This document shows, one piece after another, positions 27,458 to 35,433 of a DNA stretch of 64,000 nucleotides. The DNA is taken from assembly GCA_038749065.1 (NCBI GenBank), contig JBCDIK010000001.1, forward strand, positions 9,506-73,505. Direction: 5' to 3'. A program made the translations under genes and the position numbers. This stretch comes from Pseudomonadota bacterium. Its GTDB lineage: Bacteria > Pseudomonadota > Gammaproteobacteria > Pseudomonadales > Azotimanducaceae. Within the stretch, counting starts at the first letter, position 1. Each line of letters begins with the position of its first letter. The notes under the pieces were generated by a model. That model saw only the letters and a list, made by a program, of their open reading frames with translations, was not told the origin of the DNA and ran no database searches.

Positions 27458-28596
27458 GCGAGTCACCGCAGACCCCCTCGCGGCGCAGCGGAATGACGCC
27501 TGCGCGCCTGTGGCAACGCTACGTCCTGCCGGCGCTGATCATCATCCCCATCTACTTCCTGTTTCTGGCCTACCCGCCCCTGCGCCTGATGGATCTGCTG
27601 CGCCCAGACTGGCAGCCGGGCACCGCGATGCTGCTCACTGTGTTCATCGGGCCGGCGCTGGGGCGACTGAGCTACGAGTGGCGACCGGGGCCGTCGACCC
27701 GGCGGCTGTCCGCGCTGGCCCTGACCTGGTGCGGCCTGTGTTTCGTGGCGCTGTGTCTGTTGCTGCCCTTCGAGGTGCTGAACGCTGTGCTGGATCTCCC
27801 GCGCCAGGCCAGCGGTCTGGTGCTGCTTGGCGCTGTCGCGGCGCTGGGATTCATCGGGGTCGCCCAGGCACAGCTGCTGCCGGTGCGTAAACTGCACCTC
27901 ACCGTCCCGCGCGCGGCCTGGCCAGAAGGCCCGGGGCGATGCGCAAGCCGCCCGCTACAGTTTGCCCAGATCAGTGACGTGCACATCGGCTCCCGGGAAC
28001 CCGCTTATCTGCGCCGCGTCGTGCGCCGGGTGGCCGAGCTGCCGGTGGACTACGTGCTGATCACCGGTGACCTGATCGACTTTCGCGACATTTCTCTCGC
28101 GCAGCTGCGACCGCTCGGCGACCTGCCGGTCCCGGTGTTGTTTTGCATCGGTAACCACGAACGCTACGTGGATCTGGAAGACATCTGCGAGCGACTGCGC
28201 CGGGTGGGGGTCATCGTGCTGCGCAACGAGTCGATCACCTTGAACGGGGTCCAGTTCATCGGTATCGATGATGCCGAGCGCCGCGACCAGGTTGCGAGGC
28301 ACCTGCCGGCCATCACGCCGGAAGCGGCACTGCGGGTGCTGCTTTACCACCGCCCCGACGGCGCTGAGGCGGCGCAGCAGTGGGGGGCGCACCTCATGTT
28401 CTGCGGTCATACGCACAACGGCCAGATCAAGCCCTTCAACCTGCTCGTGCGCCGGCAGTTTGCACGCATCGCCGGGCTTTACCGGATCGGCGATCTGCAG
28501 CTCTACGTGAGCCCGGGAACCGGCACCTGGGGGCCGGTCATGCGCCTGGGCACCTGCGGCGAGGTGACCTGGGTGACCGTTCGGAGTGACGTGTAA
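27454..28596 (+). CDS. membrane-bound metallophosphoesterase (calcineurin-like)
   Basis: About 4 N-terminal TM spans, followed by QISDVHIG, ITGDLID, GNHE and GHTHNGQ. The GTG start overlaps the upstream stop (GTGA). Confidence 0.8.
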   Translation: MSESPQTPSRRSGMTPARLWQRYVLPALIIIPIYFLFLAYPPLRLMDLLRPDWQPGTAMLLTVFIGPALGRLSYEWRPGPSTRRLSALALTWCGLCFVALCLLLPFEVLNAVLDLPRQASGLVLLGAVAALGFIGVAQAQLLPVRKLHLTVPRAAWPEGPGRCASRPLQFAQISDVHIGSREPAYLRRVVRRVAELPVDYVLITGDLIDFRDISLAQLRPLGDLPVPVLFCIGNHERYVDLEDICERLRRVGVIVLRNESITLNGVQFIGIDDAERRDQVARHLPAITPEAALRVLLYHRPDGAEAAQQWGAHLMFCGHTHNGQIKPFNLLVRRQFARIAGLYRIGDLQLYVSPGTGTWGPVMRLGTCGEVTWVTVRSDV

Positions 28597-28627
28597 ATGC
28601 ATCATAATCCGATCCTTTGATGCATTT
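28595..28627. promoter_or_regulatory. perfect 10-bp inverted repeat AAATGCATCA-N13-TGATGCATTT (terminator and/or TA operator)
   Basis: Read base by base at 28595-28604 and 28618-28627. It sits in an A+T-rich patch starting at the second base of the phosphoesterase stop (28594-28596) and ending 34 nt upstream of the antitoxin ATG. Confidence 0.4.
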
Positions 28628-28660
28628 GCAACAGCCAACACTTTGCCCCATACTCAGCCC

Positions 28661-29020
28661 ATGACCGCACAACCCGACCACACCCCTGATCCCGCCGCCG
28701 TGCTCGGCAAAGCTGCCGGCCGCGCCGCAGCGGCATTCGGCCTGACGGGCTCGGAGCTGGCGACAATCATCGGTCGCGATCGCAGCAGCATCGCCCGGGC
28801 GGGCATCGATCCGGCCAGCAAGGCCGGAGAGCTGGCGCTGCTGCTGGTTCGCAGCTATCGCTCCCTGGCGGTGCTGGTGGATGGCAACGAGGCCCAGCTC
28901 AAGCAGTGGCTGCGCACGGACAACGCTCACACCGGCGGCGTGCCGCTCGAGCAGCTGCGCAGCGTCTCCGGGCTCGTGACCGTGGTCGGCTACCTCGATG
29001 CGATTCGCGGGCGCGTCTGA
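28661..29020 (+). CDS. Xre/MbcA/ParS-type antitoxin (DUF2384-like C-terminal toxin-binding domain)
   Basis: About 120 aa. The HTH-like segment is FGLTGSELATIIGRDRSSIAR. The C-terminus is EAQLKQWLRTDNAHTGGVPLEQLRSVSGLVTVVGYLDAIR, typical of antitoxins paired with RES toxins. It lies directly upstream of the RES gene. Confidence 0.72.
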   Translation: MTAQPDHTPDPAAVLGKAAGRAAAAFGLTGSELATIIGRDRSSIARAGIDPASKAGELALLLVRSYRSLAVLVDGNEAQLKQWLRTDNAHTGGVPLEQLRSVSGLVTVVGYLDAIRGRV

Positions 29021-29029
29021 GACGCGCTC

Positions 29030-29776
29030 GTGAACTGGGCGCCCTGCCTTGCGGTCGCGCGGCCGACGGTCCTGCTGGGCACGCTGAAGCGCATGGTCGA
29101 GAGCCAGAAGCAGGTGGCCACGCTGCCGCTGGTCGACAGCCTGGACGAGCACCAGGTGCTGGAAACGCTGCTGGAAGACTCCAAGCCCGCCCTACCTGAC
29201 AGCCTGGCCCGGCTCGACTACCTGCTGCGTAGCCCCTGGCGCTATCCCCCGTTACCCTGGGGGTCGCGCTTTGGCACCCGCTATGAGCCAGGGTTGTTTT
29301 ACGGTGCGCTGTCGAACGCCGCGCTGTTCGCCGAGACCGCGTTCTACCGGTTGGTGTTTCTGGACGGCCCCAGGCGCCCCCTGGCGGGACGCGTGACGAG
29401 TCAGCACACGCTGTTCAGCGCCCGCTACCGGGCCGAGGCGGGCTACGACCTCACGAGCGCGCCGTTCGCGGAGCACCAGGCCGTGCTGACTGACCCGCAG
29501 CACTACACGCCCTGCCAGGCGCTCGGGACCGCCCTGCGTGCGGCCGGCGCCGAGGCCTTCATCTATCGCTCCGCGCGCGTGGCCGAGCGCGAGGCCGAGG
29601 GCAACAACATCGCTCTGCTAACGCCCGCCGCCCTGCGTTCACGCCGGCATCTGCAGCCGCAACCGGTGCTGTGCGAGGCAACCACAGAGACCGTGAGCCT
29701 GCGGCACGGTGATCGGGTGCATCGCTTCGCCCGGGCCCAGTTCCTGGTCGACGGGGTCCTGCCAATGCCGGCCTAA
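29030..29776 (+). CDS. RES domain toxin
   Basis: SRFGTRYEPGLFYGALSNAALFAETAFYR (Arg and Glu region) and FIYRSARV (Ser region), followed by NIALLTP. The GTG start lies 9 nt after the antitoxin stop (ATG 29093 is an alternative). Confidence 0.72.
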   Translation: MNWAPCLAVARPTVLLGTLKRMVESQKQVATLPLVDSLDEHQVLETLLEDSKPALPDSLARLDYLLRSPWRYPPLPWGSRFGTRYEPGLFYGALSNAALFAETAFYRLVFLDGPRRPLAGRVTSQHTLFSARYRAEAGYDLTSAPFAEHQAVLTDPQHYTPCQALGTALRAAGAEAFIYRSARVAEREAEGNNIALLTPAALRSRRHLQPQPVLCEATTETVSLRHGDRVHRFARAQFLVDGVLPMPA

Positions 29777-30530: not shown

Positions 30531-32156
30531 TTAGCGGTCGGCAGGCGTACCGGTGGTGCTCACCGGGGTTCCCGCCGGAGCCGGCAGACCCAGCGACTCG
30601 AAGTTAAGCGTCGCCGCATCGATATCGATGCGCGCGAGCTGTCGTCGCAGGGATGCTTTCAGCAGCGCGACCTCCGCGTTGGCCGCTGAGACTTCCCGCA
30701 GGTTGATCAGGAAAAAATCGCTCGCGCCCTGGCGCATCCGGGCGTTCTCCGCCCGCACCAGGGTGCGGTTCTGCTCCAGCTCCAGCTGCGCCAACTGCTC
30801 CAGATCTTCAGCAGCCCTGAGCTCGACCAGCAGATCGGCGAACTGCTGCGTGAGCTGATCGGTCTGCAGGCGTCGCTGCGCGTCCAGGGACGACAGCTCC
30901 GCTTCCGCCGCCGCCACCTCGCCACGCGCCTTGCGCCGCTGCAGCGGCACGGAGAACTTCAGCCCGACGATGGGATCTGTAGAGTCCCGAGACACGCCCC
31001 CCTGCCCGATGCCACCGGCGCTCTGCGCCAGATCGAAAGTCAGATCGAGGGTGGGCTCGAGCTCGTTGCGCGCGAGCGCAAGCTCAGCGTTGGCCCGCTG
31101 CGCGGCCACATTGAGCCGTTGAATCGAAGGATGCCGCGCGAGAATCTCGGGCAGCAGGGCGATGGTCGGCGCAAGTACCCTGGACCCCTGATCCGCCTCC
31201 GCCTGCGCCGCGATGGGCATCTCGGCCGGCAACTGAGCCCGGCGCGGCGCCTGCATCATCCCGTTGTCATCCCGGTAGTAGAGCGCCAGCGCGTTCGCGG
31301 CCTTGTCGAAGGCGGCGCGCGCTGTCGCGACCAGCACCCGACGATTGGTGATGTTGCGGGCGTTCTCGGTCAGATCGATGCGGGCCCGGGCCCCTCGGCG
31401 CACCTGCGCCTGCAGCGCATCGTCCCGTGCTAAAGACAGCGCCAGCAGCGACTCGTAGGCCCGCAGCTGCCGCCCCAGCGCACGCCAGTACCAGTACGCT
31501 GCGGCGGCCTTACGCTGGACCCCGATGCGGGTGATCAGCACATCGAGCTCAACCTGCTGCAGCGCGAGGCGCGCGTCCCGGATCGCGAAGCGGCGGTCGT
31601 CGATCGTGCGGTCCTTCATGAGCGAGAACAGGACGCCGACCTTCAGCCGCCCGCCCTTGTTGGTGAAGTACTCGTCGTAGTAAATCGGTAGCTCGCCCGC
31701 GGACAGATCCCAGCCGCCATACACTTCGCCGCCAAAGGCTCGCAGCGGCTGAGTCACCGTCGAGGTAAAGGTGCGCCCGTTATAGAACCCGCCCAGGTAT
31801 CCGAAGGTATCGGCCTCAAACAGCAGGTCGAAAGCCCCCTCCGTCGAGGTGACCTTGCCCGCCGCCTGCTCGCGCTGCTGCAGCGCTTCGAGAATGCTTG
31901 GATAGAAGCGGGCCGAGCGGGTCAGCACGCGCTCAAGCGTCAGCTCCTGATCCAGCTCATCGTCTCCGGGGATCACCTGGGGATCCGCGTAGCTGGGCGA
32001 GGTCGTCGCGGCCAGGGCCGGGTGGATCGGCAGTGCCGCCAGCAGCAACGCGCTGAGCCAGGCTCTGAGCCCGGCCAAGAGCCAGACCGACCGAGTCTGC
32101 GCATCAGCGCGCGCGCCGGAAGAAGGGCGCGCGCTAGAACGTCGGCGGAGGGGCAT
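30531..32156 (-). CDS. TolC-family outer membrane efflux protein
   Basis: Signal peptide ending ALAATT. The body is two long helical repeat halves rich in A/L/Q/R (LERVL..A....PSIL.A......A). It is the last gene of the ABC-HlyD-TolC operon and overlaps the HlyD gene by 23 nt. Confidence 0.78.
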   Translation of the reverse strand: MPLRRRSSARPSSGARADAQTRSVWLLAGLRAWLSALLLAALPIHPALAATTSPSYADPQVIPGDDELDQELTLERVLTRSARFYPSILEALQQREQAAGKVTSTEGAFDLLFEADTFGYLGGFYNGRTFTSTVTQPLRAFGGEVYGGWDLSAGELPIYYDEYFTNKGGRLKVGVLFSLMKDRTIDDRRFAIRDARLALQQVELDVLITRIGVQRKAAAAYWYWRALGRQLRAYESLLALSLARDDALQAQVRRGARARIDLTENARNITNRRVLVATARAAFDKAANALALYYRDDNGMMQAPRRAQLPAEMPIAAQAEADQGSRVLAPTIALLPEILARHPSIQRLNVAAQRANAELALARNELEPTLDLTFDLAQSAGGIGQGGVSRDSTDPIVGLKFSVPLQRRKARGEVAAAEAELSSLDAQRRLQTDQLTQQFADLLVELRAAEDLEQLAQLELEQNRTLVRAENARMRQGASDFFLINLREVSAANAEVALLKASLRRQLARIDIDAATLNFESLGLPAPAGTPVSTTGTPADR

Positions 32157-33171
32157 GCGCGGGAAATTCCGGGGGGAAATTGTTCACCTGGCGCCAGATT
32201 TCGAAGCCGACGGAGACGCGTTCCAGCAGCACCCAGCCGCGGGCGTTGGCACCGTAGCGAAGCACGTTCGAGTCCGGCCAGGCCCGCTCGGCCTCCGGGT
32301 GCTCGCTGATGATGACGCGAAAGCGCCCATCGGGCTGCGCTGAGGGATCGACGTTGACCACGACGCCATCGAAAACGCCGACGGCGATGGACGGCCAGCC
32401 GCTGAACTGGACCACTGGCCAGCCTTCGAACTGCAGCGTCACCCGCGCCCCGGGGTAGATGAGTGCGCTGTCGCGGCCGTCGATGAACAGCTCGACCGCG
32501 CGTCCGGCATCGGCCGGGACGAAGCTCGCGAGCGGGTCACCAGCGCTGACGAACGTTGCGCTGTCACCGGCGTTCACCTGCAGGATCACCCCGTCCCTGG
32601 GGGCCCGCACCAGCTGCACGCTGCCCCGGGACAGGCGCACTTCGGCGCGGGTCAGCGCCGCCGCTGCCGCCGCCACGCTGGCCTTGCGCTCCTCGAAGCG
32701 AATGCGCGCCTGCTCGAACTCGCGTTGCGCCGCCAGGCCTTCGTCGAGCAGCGCCTGGGTGCGGCGGTAGTCGATCTCGGCCGTCGTCATGGCAGATTCC
32801 GCCGCCTGCAGCTGCGCGCTGAGCTGTTCCTTTTCCTGCTGCAGGCGCTCGATGAGCTGCGGGTCGTTATCGATGATCCGGGCGATGGGATCGCCGACCT
32901 TCACACGGCTGCCGTCACGAACAAACCACTGCTGGATTCGCCCGGACACGAGCGCATTGATTTCCTGCAGCCGATCATTCGGATCGAGCGCGATCACGCG
33001 CCCGCTGCCAGCGGCCGTCTGGACCCAGGGGGCAAACACCAGAAAACACACCACCATGATCAGACTGGCGATAATGATCCAGCCGGTGATCCACATGACC
33101 CGGGGCTTCCAGATCGAATCGAGCGATCGAAACAGGTGTGCGTGCTGCTCCCGGTGCGACGACGCTGCCAC
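32134..33171 (-). CDS. HlyD-family membrane fusion (periplasmic adaptor) protein
   Basis: N-terminal TM ITGWIIIASLIMVVCFLVF. The lipoyl-like segment is SGRIQQWFVRDGSRVKVGDPIARI. It also has a coiled coil, VRAPRDGVI and a beta-barrel C-terminus. The GTG start shares 1 nt with the ABC gene stop. Confidence 0.8.
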   Translation of the reverse strand: MAASSHREQHAHLFRSLDSIWKPRVMWITGWIIIASLIMVVCFLVFAPWVQTAAGSGRVIALDPNDRLQEINALVSGRIQQWFVRDGSRVKVGDPIARIIDNDPQLIERLQQEKEQLSAQLQAAESAMTTAEIDYRRTQALLDEGLAAQREFEQARIRFEERKASVAAAAAALTRAEVRLSRGSVQLVRAPRDGVILQVNAGDSATFVSAGDPLASFVPADAGRAVELFIDGRDSALIYPGARVTLQFEGWPVVQFSGWPSIAVGVFDGVVVNVDPSAQPDGRFRVIISEHPEAERAWPDSNVLRYGANARGWVLLERVSVGFEIWRQVNNFPPEFPAHAPPPTF

Positions 33172-34892
33172 TACACCCCCTCCGAAGCGGGCACGCGTGG
33201 CGCCAGCCCTTGCTGAATCCGATCGGAGAAGCTGTCGAAGTCGGAGAACAGGAGCTGTGAACGCGCTTCGAGCAGGAGCCAGTGATCACAGCCCAGATCC
33301 GGTTCGCTCGAGGACATGACCATGATGGTGGTCTGTCCCTGCGTGACTTCCGTCAGCAGGTCGAGCGCGGCGCGCAGCTGCGCCTCCGGCATCATGTCGT
33401 AGAGCTGGTTCAGCACCAGCAGGTTCGGTTGCGCGATGATGGCACTGGCCAGCTTGAGCTGCATGTTCTCGGCGATGGAGAGCGGCCAGCCGCTGGCCGT
33501 GATGCGCGTGTCGAGCCCGGCGTCGAGCTTGCCCACCGTATCTTCCAGACCCACCGCCTGCAGTGTTTCCAGCAGGAGCCCGGGATCCCCATCGCGCCCA
33601 GACAGTTCCAGGAACTCCCGCATGGACATATCGATGGCGTTCGGCCGGTCGAGCACGATGATCTGTTGGCGCTGGGTGTGCTGCGGAATCGCATCCATAT
33701 CGATCCCACCCAGGGTCGCGAAGCCGCTCGCCGGAGACTCGTGTCCTTTCAGGAACCCGTTCATGGCCCGCACCGGGCCGTACTGGTCCGCGTGCACCAG
33801 CACGCGAGCGCCCGCGGGAATCGCAAAGTCCAGGCGAACCTCTTCACCGCGCAGCTTCATGGTCGCCTGGCTGAACGCCAGATCGCCGGTGGTGGCGCGC
33901 TCGCCGCGATTGGCGCTGAACTTCTCCTGGTCGACGTCGTAGAACAGCGCCAGCTCGTCGATCGCAGCGCAAAGATCGTAGAAGTAGGTCAGGTACAACC
34001 CGAGCTGGGAAATCCCGACAAAAACCACCGACAACACCAGTTCCGCCGCTACGAGCTGACCGATCGACAGTTCGCCCTGAATCACCAGCCAGCCACCCAG
34101 GCCAAGCAGCAGTGCGCTGGACGCGGCGTACAGCAACAGCAGCGCCAGCGTCTGCGAAAAGTGATGACGAAAGTGCAAGCGCTGCTGGGAGATGAAGCGG
34201 TCCGTCATGGCATCGGTGTGTGCCAGGGCGTAGTCGATGTGGCGCTCGGACTTGAAGAAGCCGTTCGAGTCGCCCAGCCCCTCAAGCCAGGCGGCGACCG
34301 CGTGCTTGCGATGGGACAGCTCCACTGCCGAGCGCATGGCCCGTCGGCCCCAGATGAGCCATACGGACCAGATCAGGAGGACGAGCACCACGCTGAACGC
34401 CAGAAACAGCGGGTGGTAGAGAGAGACCAGCACGAACCCGACCAGCGTCTGCAGGACGATCGTGAAGCCGCCCACGAGCAGATAGGGCACGGTCTTGGTG
34501 ACGATGATGGCGTCGAAGTAGCGGTTGAAGAGCGCGCCCTCACCGCTGTCCTCGAAGTGCGGGTTGACCGCATAGATGGCCCGCAGGGCAATCTCGGACA
34601 CGATTCGCGCGTAGAAACGCCGACTGAACAGATCCATGAGGTGAATGCGCAGCGCGTTGAGGAGGCTGGCGAAGACCAGCAGCACGAACAGCGCCAGCGA
34701 CAGGATGATCAGCGGCGTGATCAGCCCCGTGTAAGCCACGGTATTGATCAGCAGCTGCACGGAGATCGGCGTCGCCAGTGACAGGAGGCTGATGCCGACG
34801 CCGTAGATCAGCACCAGCGCAAAGTAGCGGTCCTCGGGCCCGAGAATGACACCGATGAACCGCCAGACATCTGCCAGACTTCGGGGACTCAA
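33171..34892 (-). CDS. ABC exporter-type protein (6-TM domain + nucleotide-binding-like domain) with degenerate ATPase motifs
   Basis: 573 aa. The type-I-exporter TMD covers aa 20-310. The C-terminal NBD-like fold has none of the catalytic motifs intact: no GxxGxGK(S/T), no LSGGQ, no Walker B D-E and no H-loop His (details in finding). Confidence 0.7.
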   Translation of the reverse strand: MSPRSLADVWRFIGVILGPEDRYFALVLIYGVGISLLSLATPISVQLLINTVAYTGLITPLIILSLALFVLLVFASLLNALRIHLMDLFSRRFYARIVSEIALRAIYAVNPHFEDSGEGALFNRYFDAIIVTKTVPYLLVGGFTIVLQTLVGFVLVSLYHPLFLAFSVVLVLLIWSVWLIWGRRAMRSAVELSHRKHAVAAWLEGLGDSNGFFKSERHIDYALAHTDAMTDRFISQQRLHFRHHFSQTLALLLLYAASSALLLGLGGWLVIQGELSIGQLVAAELVLSVVFVGISQLGLYLTYFYDLCAAIDELALFYDVDQEKFSANRGERATTGDLAFSQATMKLRGEEVRLDFAIPAGARVLVHADQYGPVRAMNGFLKGHESPASGFATLGGIDMDAIPQHTQRQQIIVLDRPNAIDMSMREFLELSGRDGDPGLLLETLQAVGLEDTVGKLDAGLDTRITASGWPLSIAENMQLKLASAIIAQPNLLVLNQLYDMMPEAQLRAALDLLTEVTQGQTTIMVMSSSEPDLGCDHWLLLEARSQLLFSDFDSFSDRIQQGLAPRVPASEGV

Positions 34893-34923
34893 AATTGGCC
34901 TACCCTGGCACGCTGCATCGGTG

Positions 34924-35433
34924 TCAGTCCGGCGCGCAGTCCGGCAGGCCGGCGCTCGCCAGCATCCGCACCGTGAGGTCCGAGCAGCGGCTCACCGGCT
35001 CAAAGCGCGCAGTGCGCCCGAGCAGCGGTGTCCCGATGTAGCCGCGCATCTTCAGGTCGCCTTTGCGATCGACGCTCATGCGCGAGCTATAGGTCTTGCC
35101 GCTCTCAGGATCATAGATCTCGCCTTGCCAGCGCTCGCCGGTCCAGCGGTAGCCCGCAAGCAGGTTCAGGCCCAGCACCGGCTGGTCACGGCGCGCAGGG
35201 TCCGGATTGTTCCGATCTGTGACCGGCTGGCCCACAGGTCCGCCCTCGCCTTCGCGAAACAGAGGGTTCTTGAGCGCAATGACCGTGGCCGCGAGGCCGC
35301 CCTCGGCGCTGCGGGCAACCTCGATAATCGAGCTGTCACCCGCCCAGCGACCCAGCACCGCCTCAGAAGGGTCCTGCGCCAACGCGCTCGCGGTGACAAG
35401 CACCGCGGCGAGCGCGAGGAGGCCGCGACTCAA
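34924..35433 (-). CDS. DUF2147 domain-containing periplasmic protein
   Basis: Signal peptide [17 protein letters not shown], then [24 protein letters not shown] and LKMRGYIG, matching the DUF2147 pattern. The only available start is TTG 35433, which overlaps the mdh stop (TTGA). Confidence 0.6.

Follow-up and report, generated by a model that had tools for sequence, protein, structure and literature searches.

Background

ATP-binding cassette (ABC) exporters are defined by ATP-driven dimerization of their nucleotide-binding domains (NBDs), and tripartite pumps are classed by energy source as ABC, resistance-nodulation-division (RND) or major facilitator superfamily (MFS) systems. In this study we analyzed a 64,000-nucleotide (64-kb) stretch of DNA, hereafter the window, from a gammaproteobacterial genome assembly (GCA_038749065.1, contig JBCDIK010000001.1). 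Three adjoining genes in the window encode an ABC-exporter-like inner-membrane component of 573 aa (33171..34892), a membrane-anchored periplasmic adaptor, or membrane fusion protein (MFP), of 345 aa (32134..33171), and a TolC-like outer-membrane factor (OMF; 30531..32156). All positions are window coordinates and lie on the minus strand unless stated otherwise. The inner-membrane component has a six-helix type IV exporter transmembrane domain (TMD) and a C-terminal NBD that is predicted to be catalytically dead. It represents a conserved, abundant family that combines the full ABC-exporter architecture with an adaptor and a TolC partner, and that has no recognizable ATP site.

By fold and gene order, the closest known system is the type I secretion system (T1SS) of the HlyB/HlyD/TolC and PCAT types. 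SbmA, of the SbmA/BacA or SbmA-like peptide transporter (SLiPT) group, has an ABC type IV TMD and runs without ATP hydrolysis on the proton gradient (PMC13316013); it is a non-tripartite importer from which the NBD has been lost altogether. The heterodimeric exporters TM287/288, TmrAB and BmrCD, as well as CFTR in its NBD1, carry non-catalytic substitutions of the Walker B Glu, the H-loop and the signature, and the degenerate NBD of such exporters takes a structural or regulatory role (PMC7756269). In heterodimers of the TM287/288 type the degenerate site still binds ATP, one consensus site is kept, and the partner is adjacent or fused. MacB, of the MacAB-TolC pump, is a type VII protein: it carries a large periplasmic domain, and its NBD is N-terminal and active. 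We found no tripartite ABC system with both sites dead in the open-access literature that we searched, including reviews of tripartite systems (PMC8277102) and of degenerate sites (PMC7756269), although an earlier description may exist elsewhere.

Domain architecture and loss of the ATPase motifs

The 573-aa protein consists of a TMD (aa 1-330; 33903..34892), whose helices were taken from an AlphaFold2 model, and a pseudo-NBD (aa 335-550; 33243..33890) that has the NBD fold without the catalytic motifs. Profile searches with HMMER gave a divided result: the ABC_membrane family (PF00664) was just reached, at 28.2 bits against a cut-off of 28, and ABC_tran (PF00005) was failed, at 12.9 bits against a gathering cut-off of 25. 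The NCBIfam models of T1SS ABC proteins align with the protein from end to end at scores 7-12 times under their cut-offs, including 62 against 725 bits for HlyB (TIGR01846) and 91 against 693 bits for LssB (TIGR03375); for TIGR01842 the score was 34 bits against a cut-off of 510. The AlphaFold2 model comprises six long transmembrane (TM) helices and an NBD fold, with a mean predicted local distance difference test (pLDDT) score of 82.9 and values above 90 over most of the pseudo-NBD. Whole-chain Foldseek matches were PCAT1, HlyB, TmrAB, TM287/288 and Sav1866, with TM-scores of 0.82-0.85 (HlyB, 0.85; PCAT1 core, 0.84) at ~15% identity. The structure prediction proposed in the first-pass annotation of this DNA thus returned a complete type IV exporter fold in which the NBD fold is retained.

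That annotation had claimed, from the letters of the DNA and its reading frames, that the ABC component has lost every ATPase motif. Motif positions were fixed by phmmer alignment to solved ABC exporters and by alignment to relatives that retain the motifs; the frequencies given here refer to an alignment of 83 distinct orthologs. The Walker A-equivalent loop reads HADQYGPV (aa 367-374; 33771..33794) and aligns with GPTGAGKT, Lys being replaced by Pro and Ser/Thr by Val; across the orthologs the Lys position is V, A, L, I or P, and Gln occupies the Ser/Thr position in 94%. At the Q-loop, IIVLDRPN (33639..33662) has Asp415 in place of Gln and forms a conserved motif specific to the family (D in 86%, R416 in 95% and P417 in 93%). 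The signature-equivalent GWPLSIAE (33468..33491) aligns with ISAGE/LSGGQ, so that LSIAE stands for LSGGQ, and no stretch of the pseudo-NBD is better conserved: G468 and P470 occur in 100%, W469 in 98% and E475 in 99% of the orthologs, with the consensus GWPLS(I/T)xE. In the Walker B-equivalent LLVLNQ (33405..33422), compared with hhhhDE, Asp has become Asn and the catalytic Glu has become Gln; the Asp position is N, S, G or T and never D in the orthologs, while at the Glu position Q accounts for 71% and E for 18%. The H-loop-equivalent IMVMSS (33309..33326), aligned to relatives that keep 'T-H', has Ser528 in place of His, and this position is N, S, A or G in the orthologs.

All 83 orthologs lack the Walker A Lys/Ser, the Q-loop Gln, the LSGGQ glycines, the Walker B Asp and the H-loop His, and no functional set of Walker A, LSGGQ and D-E residues emerged from either kind of alignment. 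The claimed motif loss is therefore borne out. The motif sites had been placed correctly as well, with nucleotide ranges that a translation check found to be off by a trivial single codon. In exchange the pseudo-NBD has near-invariant motifs of its own, namely IIVLDRPN at the Q-loop, TGWPLSxxExMQLKLAxA along the signature helix, and Asp499. Judged from these substitutions, the pseudo-NBD would neither bind nor hydrolyze ATP, and because Walker A is gone and each locus has one ABC gene, a homodimer would carry two dead sites.

Orthologs and selection

A word-indexed search returned at least 2266 homologs of the 573-aa protein. Among the top 120, identity is 56-100% and length 564-615 aa, and a precomputed PF00005 match is almost always lacking. 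Scanning one genome per species gave confirmed matches in at least 500 species genomes, and 85 orthologous loci were fetched for gene-neighborhood analysis. Hundreds of marine bacterial species share this architecture. Gammaproteobacterial hosts include Halieaceae (Congregibacter brevis, Pseudohaliea rubra and others), Woeseiaceae, Wenzhouxiangella, Lentisalinibacter and Pseudohongiella; alphaproteobacterial hosts include Erythrobacter, Parvularcula oceani and Hyphomonas. One gammaproteobacterial metagenome-assembled genome (MAG), MFD03804.bin.1.213, carries two paralogous degenerate ABC-MFP-OMF modules on different contigs (L030 and L072). The labels under which these genes currently appear, 'ABC transporter ATP-binding protein' and 'bacteriocin exporter', are misleading.

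Nei-Gojobori ratios of nonsynonymous to synonymous substitution (dN/dS) between ortholog pairs ranged from 0.01 to 0.09 in the TMD and from 0.03 to 0.145 in the pseudo-NBD. Mean column conservation in the ortholog alignment was 0.77 for the TMD and 0.60 for the pseudo-NBD, and the intracellular loops RRFYAR, LFNRYFD, SNGFFKS and HFRH, which would contact the pseudo-NBD, are among the best-conserved parts of the protein. Compared with its nearest relative, which is 82% identical overall, the window protein shows 77% identity in the NBD and 90% in the TMD. These two proteins deviate at several near-invariant positions of the pseudo-NBD (H371Y, Q374V, T378N and F526M).

The ABC_tran score below threshold, together with the few near-invariant positions at which the window copy differs, could be taken to mean that a once-canonical allele is drifting into a pseudogene or that the gene is an annotation artifact. 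This explanation is effectively refuted: the open reading frame (ORF) is uninterrupted, an identical 573-aa protein is annotated in a public MAG, dN/dS lies far under 1, the NBD is still 77% identical to that of the nearest relative, and the degenerate state is found in every one of the 83 orthologs, across two proteobacterial classes. The window copy is accordingly no unique decaying allele, and the earlier claim of an intact, non-decaying ORF agrees with motif loss throughout the family under purifying selection. On the strength of the motif loss, the dN/dS values and the AlphaFold2 and Foldseek results, the protein is best described as a complete type IV ABC exporter half-transporter whose predicted NBD is structurally retained, under selection and, by its sequence, catalytically dead.

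The wider superfamily

A HMMER search over 1.84 billion representatives gave 1073 matches below 1e-30, the best 150 of which were examined (P0121-P0270); residue counts are based on 131 full-length representatives. Two classes were seen among the best 150. Proteins of ~550-590 aa are likewise degenerate, while proteins of ~700-790 aa have an N-terminal extension of 170-200 residues, and many of the latter keep Walker A and score well on PF00005. The extension of the ~700-aa relatives had no Pfam or PDB sequence match. The full catalytic set is kept in only 6-8 of the 131 representatives, which were picked by similarity to a degenerate query, so that the prevalence of degeneracy is biased. Loss is mosaic across the 131: five elements (Walker A, the Walker B Asp, the catalytic Glu, the H-loop His and the signature) persist or are missing in many different combinations.

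Three TMD hallmarks are invariant across the 131 representatives: PISVQxxxN in TM1 (34743-34769), YHP in the periplasmic turn between TM3 and TM4 (34410-34418) and GQLVAAELV in TM6 (34035-34061). Residues that are invariant or nearly so, irrespective of Walker A, are P42, Q46, N50, E/D87, R92, N123-R124, D127, Y159-H160-P161, K196, Q247, G278-Q279, E284 and Y305. Glu284 (codon at 34041..34043) lies in TM6 about two helical turns inside the periplasmic end. It is Glu in 131 of 131 representatives, is the only invariant carboxylate in the membrane-embedded parts of the helices, and aligns with an Asn in ComA. These proteins form a large uncharacterized ABC-B-like superfamily, defined by PxxxQxxxN (TM1), YHP (TM3/4) and GQLVAAE (TM6).

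The triad extends beyond the close orthologs. A Walker A-retaining member (P0179) has the same ABC-MFP-OMF triad in the same order; its OMF is 32% identical to that of the window, and its adaptor is 35% identical with ~93 extra residues, all within the alpha-hairpin. Distant degenerate members have the same triad and gene order too. Because Walker A-retaining and distant degenerate members share it, the three genes have been inherited together across the superfamily. In the ~570-aa lineage the ATPase has been lost completely, the N-terminal domain is gone and the adaptor hairpin has been cut to half.

Adaptor and outer-membrane factor

The first-pass annotation had called the adaptor HlyD and the whole a T1SS. 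The 345-aa protein does contain the Pfam domains HlyD_3 and Biotin_lipoyl_2, but it is not of the HlyD type: against the HlyD model TIGR01843 it scored 76.9 bits, below the cut-off of 208.65, and its hairpin is short and MacA/AcrA-like. Its AlphaFold2 model has an N-terminal TM helix, a lipoyl domain, an alpha-hairpin with helices of ~40 and ~36 residues, and a beta-barrel, without a membrane-proximal domain. The best Foldseek matches were MacA (3fpp, 5nik), AcrA and ZneB (E ~1e-15), together with MexA, EmrA was among the matches (4tko, 8zal), and HlyD was absent from the top 50 structural matches. The adaptor family (1947 matches of 339-350 aa at 60-70% identity) is conserved on a par with the ABC protein. 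Its hallmarks are an invariant FEGWPxVQFSGWPS loop (aa 248-261, of low pLDDT) and a C-terminal WRQxNNFPP, both of which are also kept in the adaptor of a Walker A-retaining relative (L086, 8603-9940).

This conserved loop, together with the PISVQ..N, YHP and GQLVAAE motifs of the ABC protein, is what speaks for a structural, non-transporting role, since it places the periplasmic interface under the strongest constraint. The dead ABC protein would then anchor or nucleate adaptor-TolC assembly, whether as a tether, as an OMF chaperone or plug, or as a periplasm-facing platform for lateral entry with passive exit. We consider such a role decidedly improbable. A mere anchor would have no need of the intracellular coupling loops and the pseudo-NBD, which are also strongly conserved, and the full six-helix translocation domain has been kept.

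The OMF matched PF02321 (OEP) in two repeats, at 72.6 bits and 4.8e-20. Its longest ORF encodes 541 aa and places an Arg/Ser-rich N-terminus before the signal peptide; no lipobox Cys follows the signal peptide. The true start is probably downstream of the longest-ORF start, as orthologous OMFs are 486-493 aa long, ~50 residues shorter. The four minus-strand ORFs that had been described here (those for the DUF2147 protein discussed below, the ABC protein, the HlyD-like adaptor and the TolC-like protein) were found at the coordinates claimed. As regards the junctions between them, a translation check confirmed the TAGTG stop/start; the 23-nt overlap of the MFP and OMF genes exists only if the most upstream ATG is used, and it may reflect an over-extended start.

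Gene neighborhood

Searches with the window proteins (tblastn) found the order ABC, then MFP, then OMF in 85 of 85 loci, the OMF being missing only at contig ends. All-versus-all clustering of 5688 flanking ORFs detected no conserved neighbor beyond the triad, the clusters consisting of the triad and antisense shadows only. A LysR regulator lies directly upstream in ~10 of the 85 loci (L042, L044, L056, L061, L077, L078, L083 and others), and MarR, TetR or LysR genes stand beside the modules of more distant relatives (L086, L089, L090). None of these regulators is universally conserved; their presence suggests a fit with efflux pumps, where such neighbors are frequent.

No linked T1SS cargo, whether a repeats-in-toxin (RTX) or C-terminal-signal protein or a double-glycine (GG)-leader peptide, was found as a conserved candidate gene in the 85 loci, although cargo may be encoded elsewhere. 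Given the MacA/AcrA-type adaptor and the lack of a conserved cargo gene, the module looks more like an efflux pump than a protein secretion system. The T1SS label is consequently doubtful: the adjacency of ABC, MFP and OMF genes on which it was based is real, but the cut-offs of the T1SS models, an HlyD-type adaptor and linked cargo are all wanting.

Linked ABC partners were sought in the same loci. No ORF with a Walker A and a signature motif occurs across the whole window, and just one of the 85 loci has an ORF combining Walker A with LSGGQ inside 8 kb, so a linked canonical partner was rejected as a candidate. The earlier observation that no cargo, C39 domain or second ABC gene is nearby thus holds in the window and in 84 of the 85 orthologous loci. 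Since the triad is present in every locus, no other neighbor is conserved and a canonical ABC gene is nearby in a single case, the triad is a self-contained envelope-spanning exporter module.

These data also bear on an obligate heterodimer, in which a canonical half-transporter encoded elsewhere in the genome would supply a single active ATP site. Precedent is ample, type IV exporters with one degenerate site being common (PMC7756269), and mixed dimers are conceivable in the MAG with two paralogous modules. Nevertheless, the paralog in that genome is itself degenerate, and a canonical ABC gene is linked neither in the window nor in 84 of 85 loci. To our knowledge, the partner genes of bacterial heterodimers are almost always adjacent. 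The known non-catalytic subunits of TM287/288 and TmrAB, moreover, keep Walker A and a canonical signature. In the window protein both are degenerate, which leaves one composite site without a P-loop and the other without a functional signature. With both sites impaired and partners normally adjacent, an unlinked partner is improbable; it was one of three mechanisms raised in the first-pass annotation, beside a scaffold driven by something else and a use of the architecture that is not ATP-driven.

Proposed mechanism

We tentatively favor, with confidence that falls a little short of even, a homodimeric efflux-type pump that works without ATP hydrolysis and is driven by an electrochemical gradient, with the pseudo-NBD as a dimerizing and coupling module. 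The ABC-like protein would act as a homodimer, in which the pseudo-NBD would relay or stabilize TMD conformations through the conserved intracellular loops. Alternating access would be powered by an electrochemical gradient, probably that of protons, and the most plausible route would be protonation and deprotonation of the pair of TM6 Glu284 residues in the dimer. Such chemistry would resemble that of EmrE, in which a single carboxylate is contested by proton and substrate. What is exported would be a small molecule, a lipid or a short peptide, produced by genes not linked to the module, and not a dedicated secreted protein; like EmrAB-TolC, the module would in effect work as a secondary tripartite efflux pump, but with an ABC scaffold. 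SbmA provides an ABC type IV TMD that is driven by a proton gradient (PMC13316013).

Several observations weigh against this proposal. Its weakest step is proton coupling, for which the invariant Glu284 is the candidate: the residue is equally invariant in Walker A-retaining relatives. Glu284 as a gain that accompanied loss of the ATPase is thereby ruled out, and it may instead be a substrate- or adaptor-contact residue; as a candidate coupling residue it could serve protons or substrate. The energy source as a whole is deduced from sequence. The predicted combination of a short-hairpin adaptor and an inner-membrane protein lacking any periplasmic domain would be hard to reconcile with bridging the periplasm. 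The deviations of the window protein (H371Y, Q374V and F526M) may represent further relaxation in this lineage, and the apparent superfamily-wide prevalence of degeneracy is biased, as the sample of 150 was drawn with a degenerate query. Extending the proposal to the superfamily, such that its members, having lost ATP hydrolysis probably on several occasions, use the ABC type IV scaffold as secondary proton- or gradient-driven tripartite exporters and keep the NBD as a nucleotide-free mechanical module, is a possibility that we consider doubtful.

The conservation pattern of the pseudo-NBD could also be accounted for by a ligand-gated or facilitated conduit. In this alternative the domain would bind a nucleotide non-canonically, or another cytosolic metabolite, and gate the TMD by a CFTR-like logic, making the protein a regulated channel or uniporter into TolC. 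The P-loop-equivalent has a consensus of its own, HG[VAL]QR, followed by K382 and H384; the aromatic F340 at an A-loop-like position is nearly invariant; and GWPLSxxE and D499 at the dimer interface, which would fit regulated dimerization, are almost invariant. On the other hand, the best-conserved P-loop-equivalent residues are replaced in the window protein and its closest relative (Y or H at position 371, V for Q374), which makes a strictly conserved ligand site in this loop unlikely. Pfam and NCBIfam detected no known ligand-binding motif, and uphill export would still require an energy source. A gated conduit is therefore, in our assessment, rather unlikely, and the gradient-driven homodimer is the reading we carry forward.

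Neighboring genes

Upstream of the module lies a gene for a DUF2147 periplasmic protein of 169 aa (34924..35433; PF09917, 1.3e-24), separated from the ABC-like gene by a 31-nt gap (34893-34923). Its TTG start overlaps the mdh stop by 4 nt (35430-35433). The first-pass annotation had treated DUF2147 as part of the operon and had proposed to check whether the order of all four genes is conserved. Only the ABC-adaptor-OMF order is. DUF2147 was rejected as a fourth component or cargo, being absent from 85 of 85 other loci and present upstream only here and in the 82%-identical nearest relative, which makes it a lineage-specific neighbor. Nor is mdh adjacent to the module in any of the 85 loci. A promoter and terminator scan around mdh, DUF2147 and the ABC-like gene found no site that scored over shuffled expectation. 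Given this result and the tight packing, the pump may share a transcript with mdh at this locus, and DUF2147 is possibly co-transcribed with the pump genes. A riboswitch or other Rfam element, which might have hinted at a substrate, was found neither in this region of the window nor in eight orthologous loci.

On the plus strand, a RES-Xre toxin-antitoxin pair occupies 28586-29776, with ~750 nt between it and the OMF gene's 3' end. An Xre/MbcA/ParS-type antitoxin gene (28586-29020; PF09722 and PF20432) precedes the gene for a RES-domain toxin (29030-29776; PF08808, 3.2e-24).

Comparison with known systems

Were the superfamily-wide extension to hold, it would provide the first case of a tripartite pump with ABC architecture running without ATP, and an extant stage between primary ABC exporters and secondary transporters of the SbmA type, which lack an NBD. 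Should the proposed mechanism prove true, the module would offer a model for the evolution of secondary from primary transporters with SbmA as the end-point, as well as a natural system in which to study the mechanical, non-catalytic contribution of the NBD. Direct tests are feasible because the family includes cultured hosts (Congregibacter, Erythrobacter, Parvularcula and Pseudohaliea).

With T1SSs of the HlyB/HlyD/TolC and PCAT types the module shares the type IV fold and the triad of ABC protein, adaptor and OMF; LssB and HlyB give the best NCBIfam alignments, and the TM6 'GQL' motif is shared with ComA. Unlike these systems, the window protein has neither a C39 nor a C39-like N-terminal domain and has had all of its ATPase motifs replaced, its adaptor, which has a short hairpin, scores below the type_I_hlyD cut-off, and no cargo is linked in the 85 loci. 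MacAB-TolC is comparable as a tripartite system of ABC-type architecture with a TM-anchored adaptor, MacA being the best structural match. In contrast to MacB, the window ABC-like protein is of type IV, has no periplasmic domain and carries its NBD, which is predicted to be dead, at the C-terminus; in contrast to MacA, the adaptor has no membrane-proximal domain.

Exporters of the TM287/288 type resemble the window protein in their non-catalytic substitutions, but the window protein has no Walker A and is the single ABC protein of its locus. SbmA/BacA proteins have the ABC type IV TMD fold in common with it; the window protein keeps a conserved NBD fold, and as it had no match to Pfam SbmA_BacA, the likeness to SbmA is functional only. 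EmrAB-TolC differs in that EmrB has an unrelated MFS fold and EmrA a very long hairpin, whereas that of the window adaptor is short. It nonetheless has a TM-anchored adaptor without a membrane-proximal domain, as well as TolC, and its secondary-active inner-membrane protein without a periplasmic domain is the functional analog of the mechanism proposed here.

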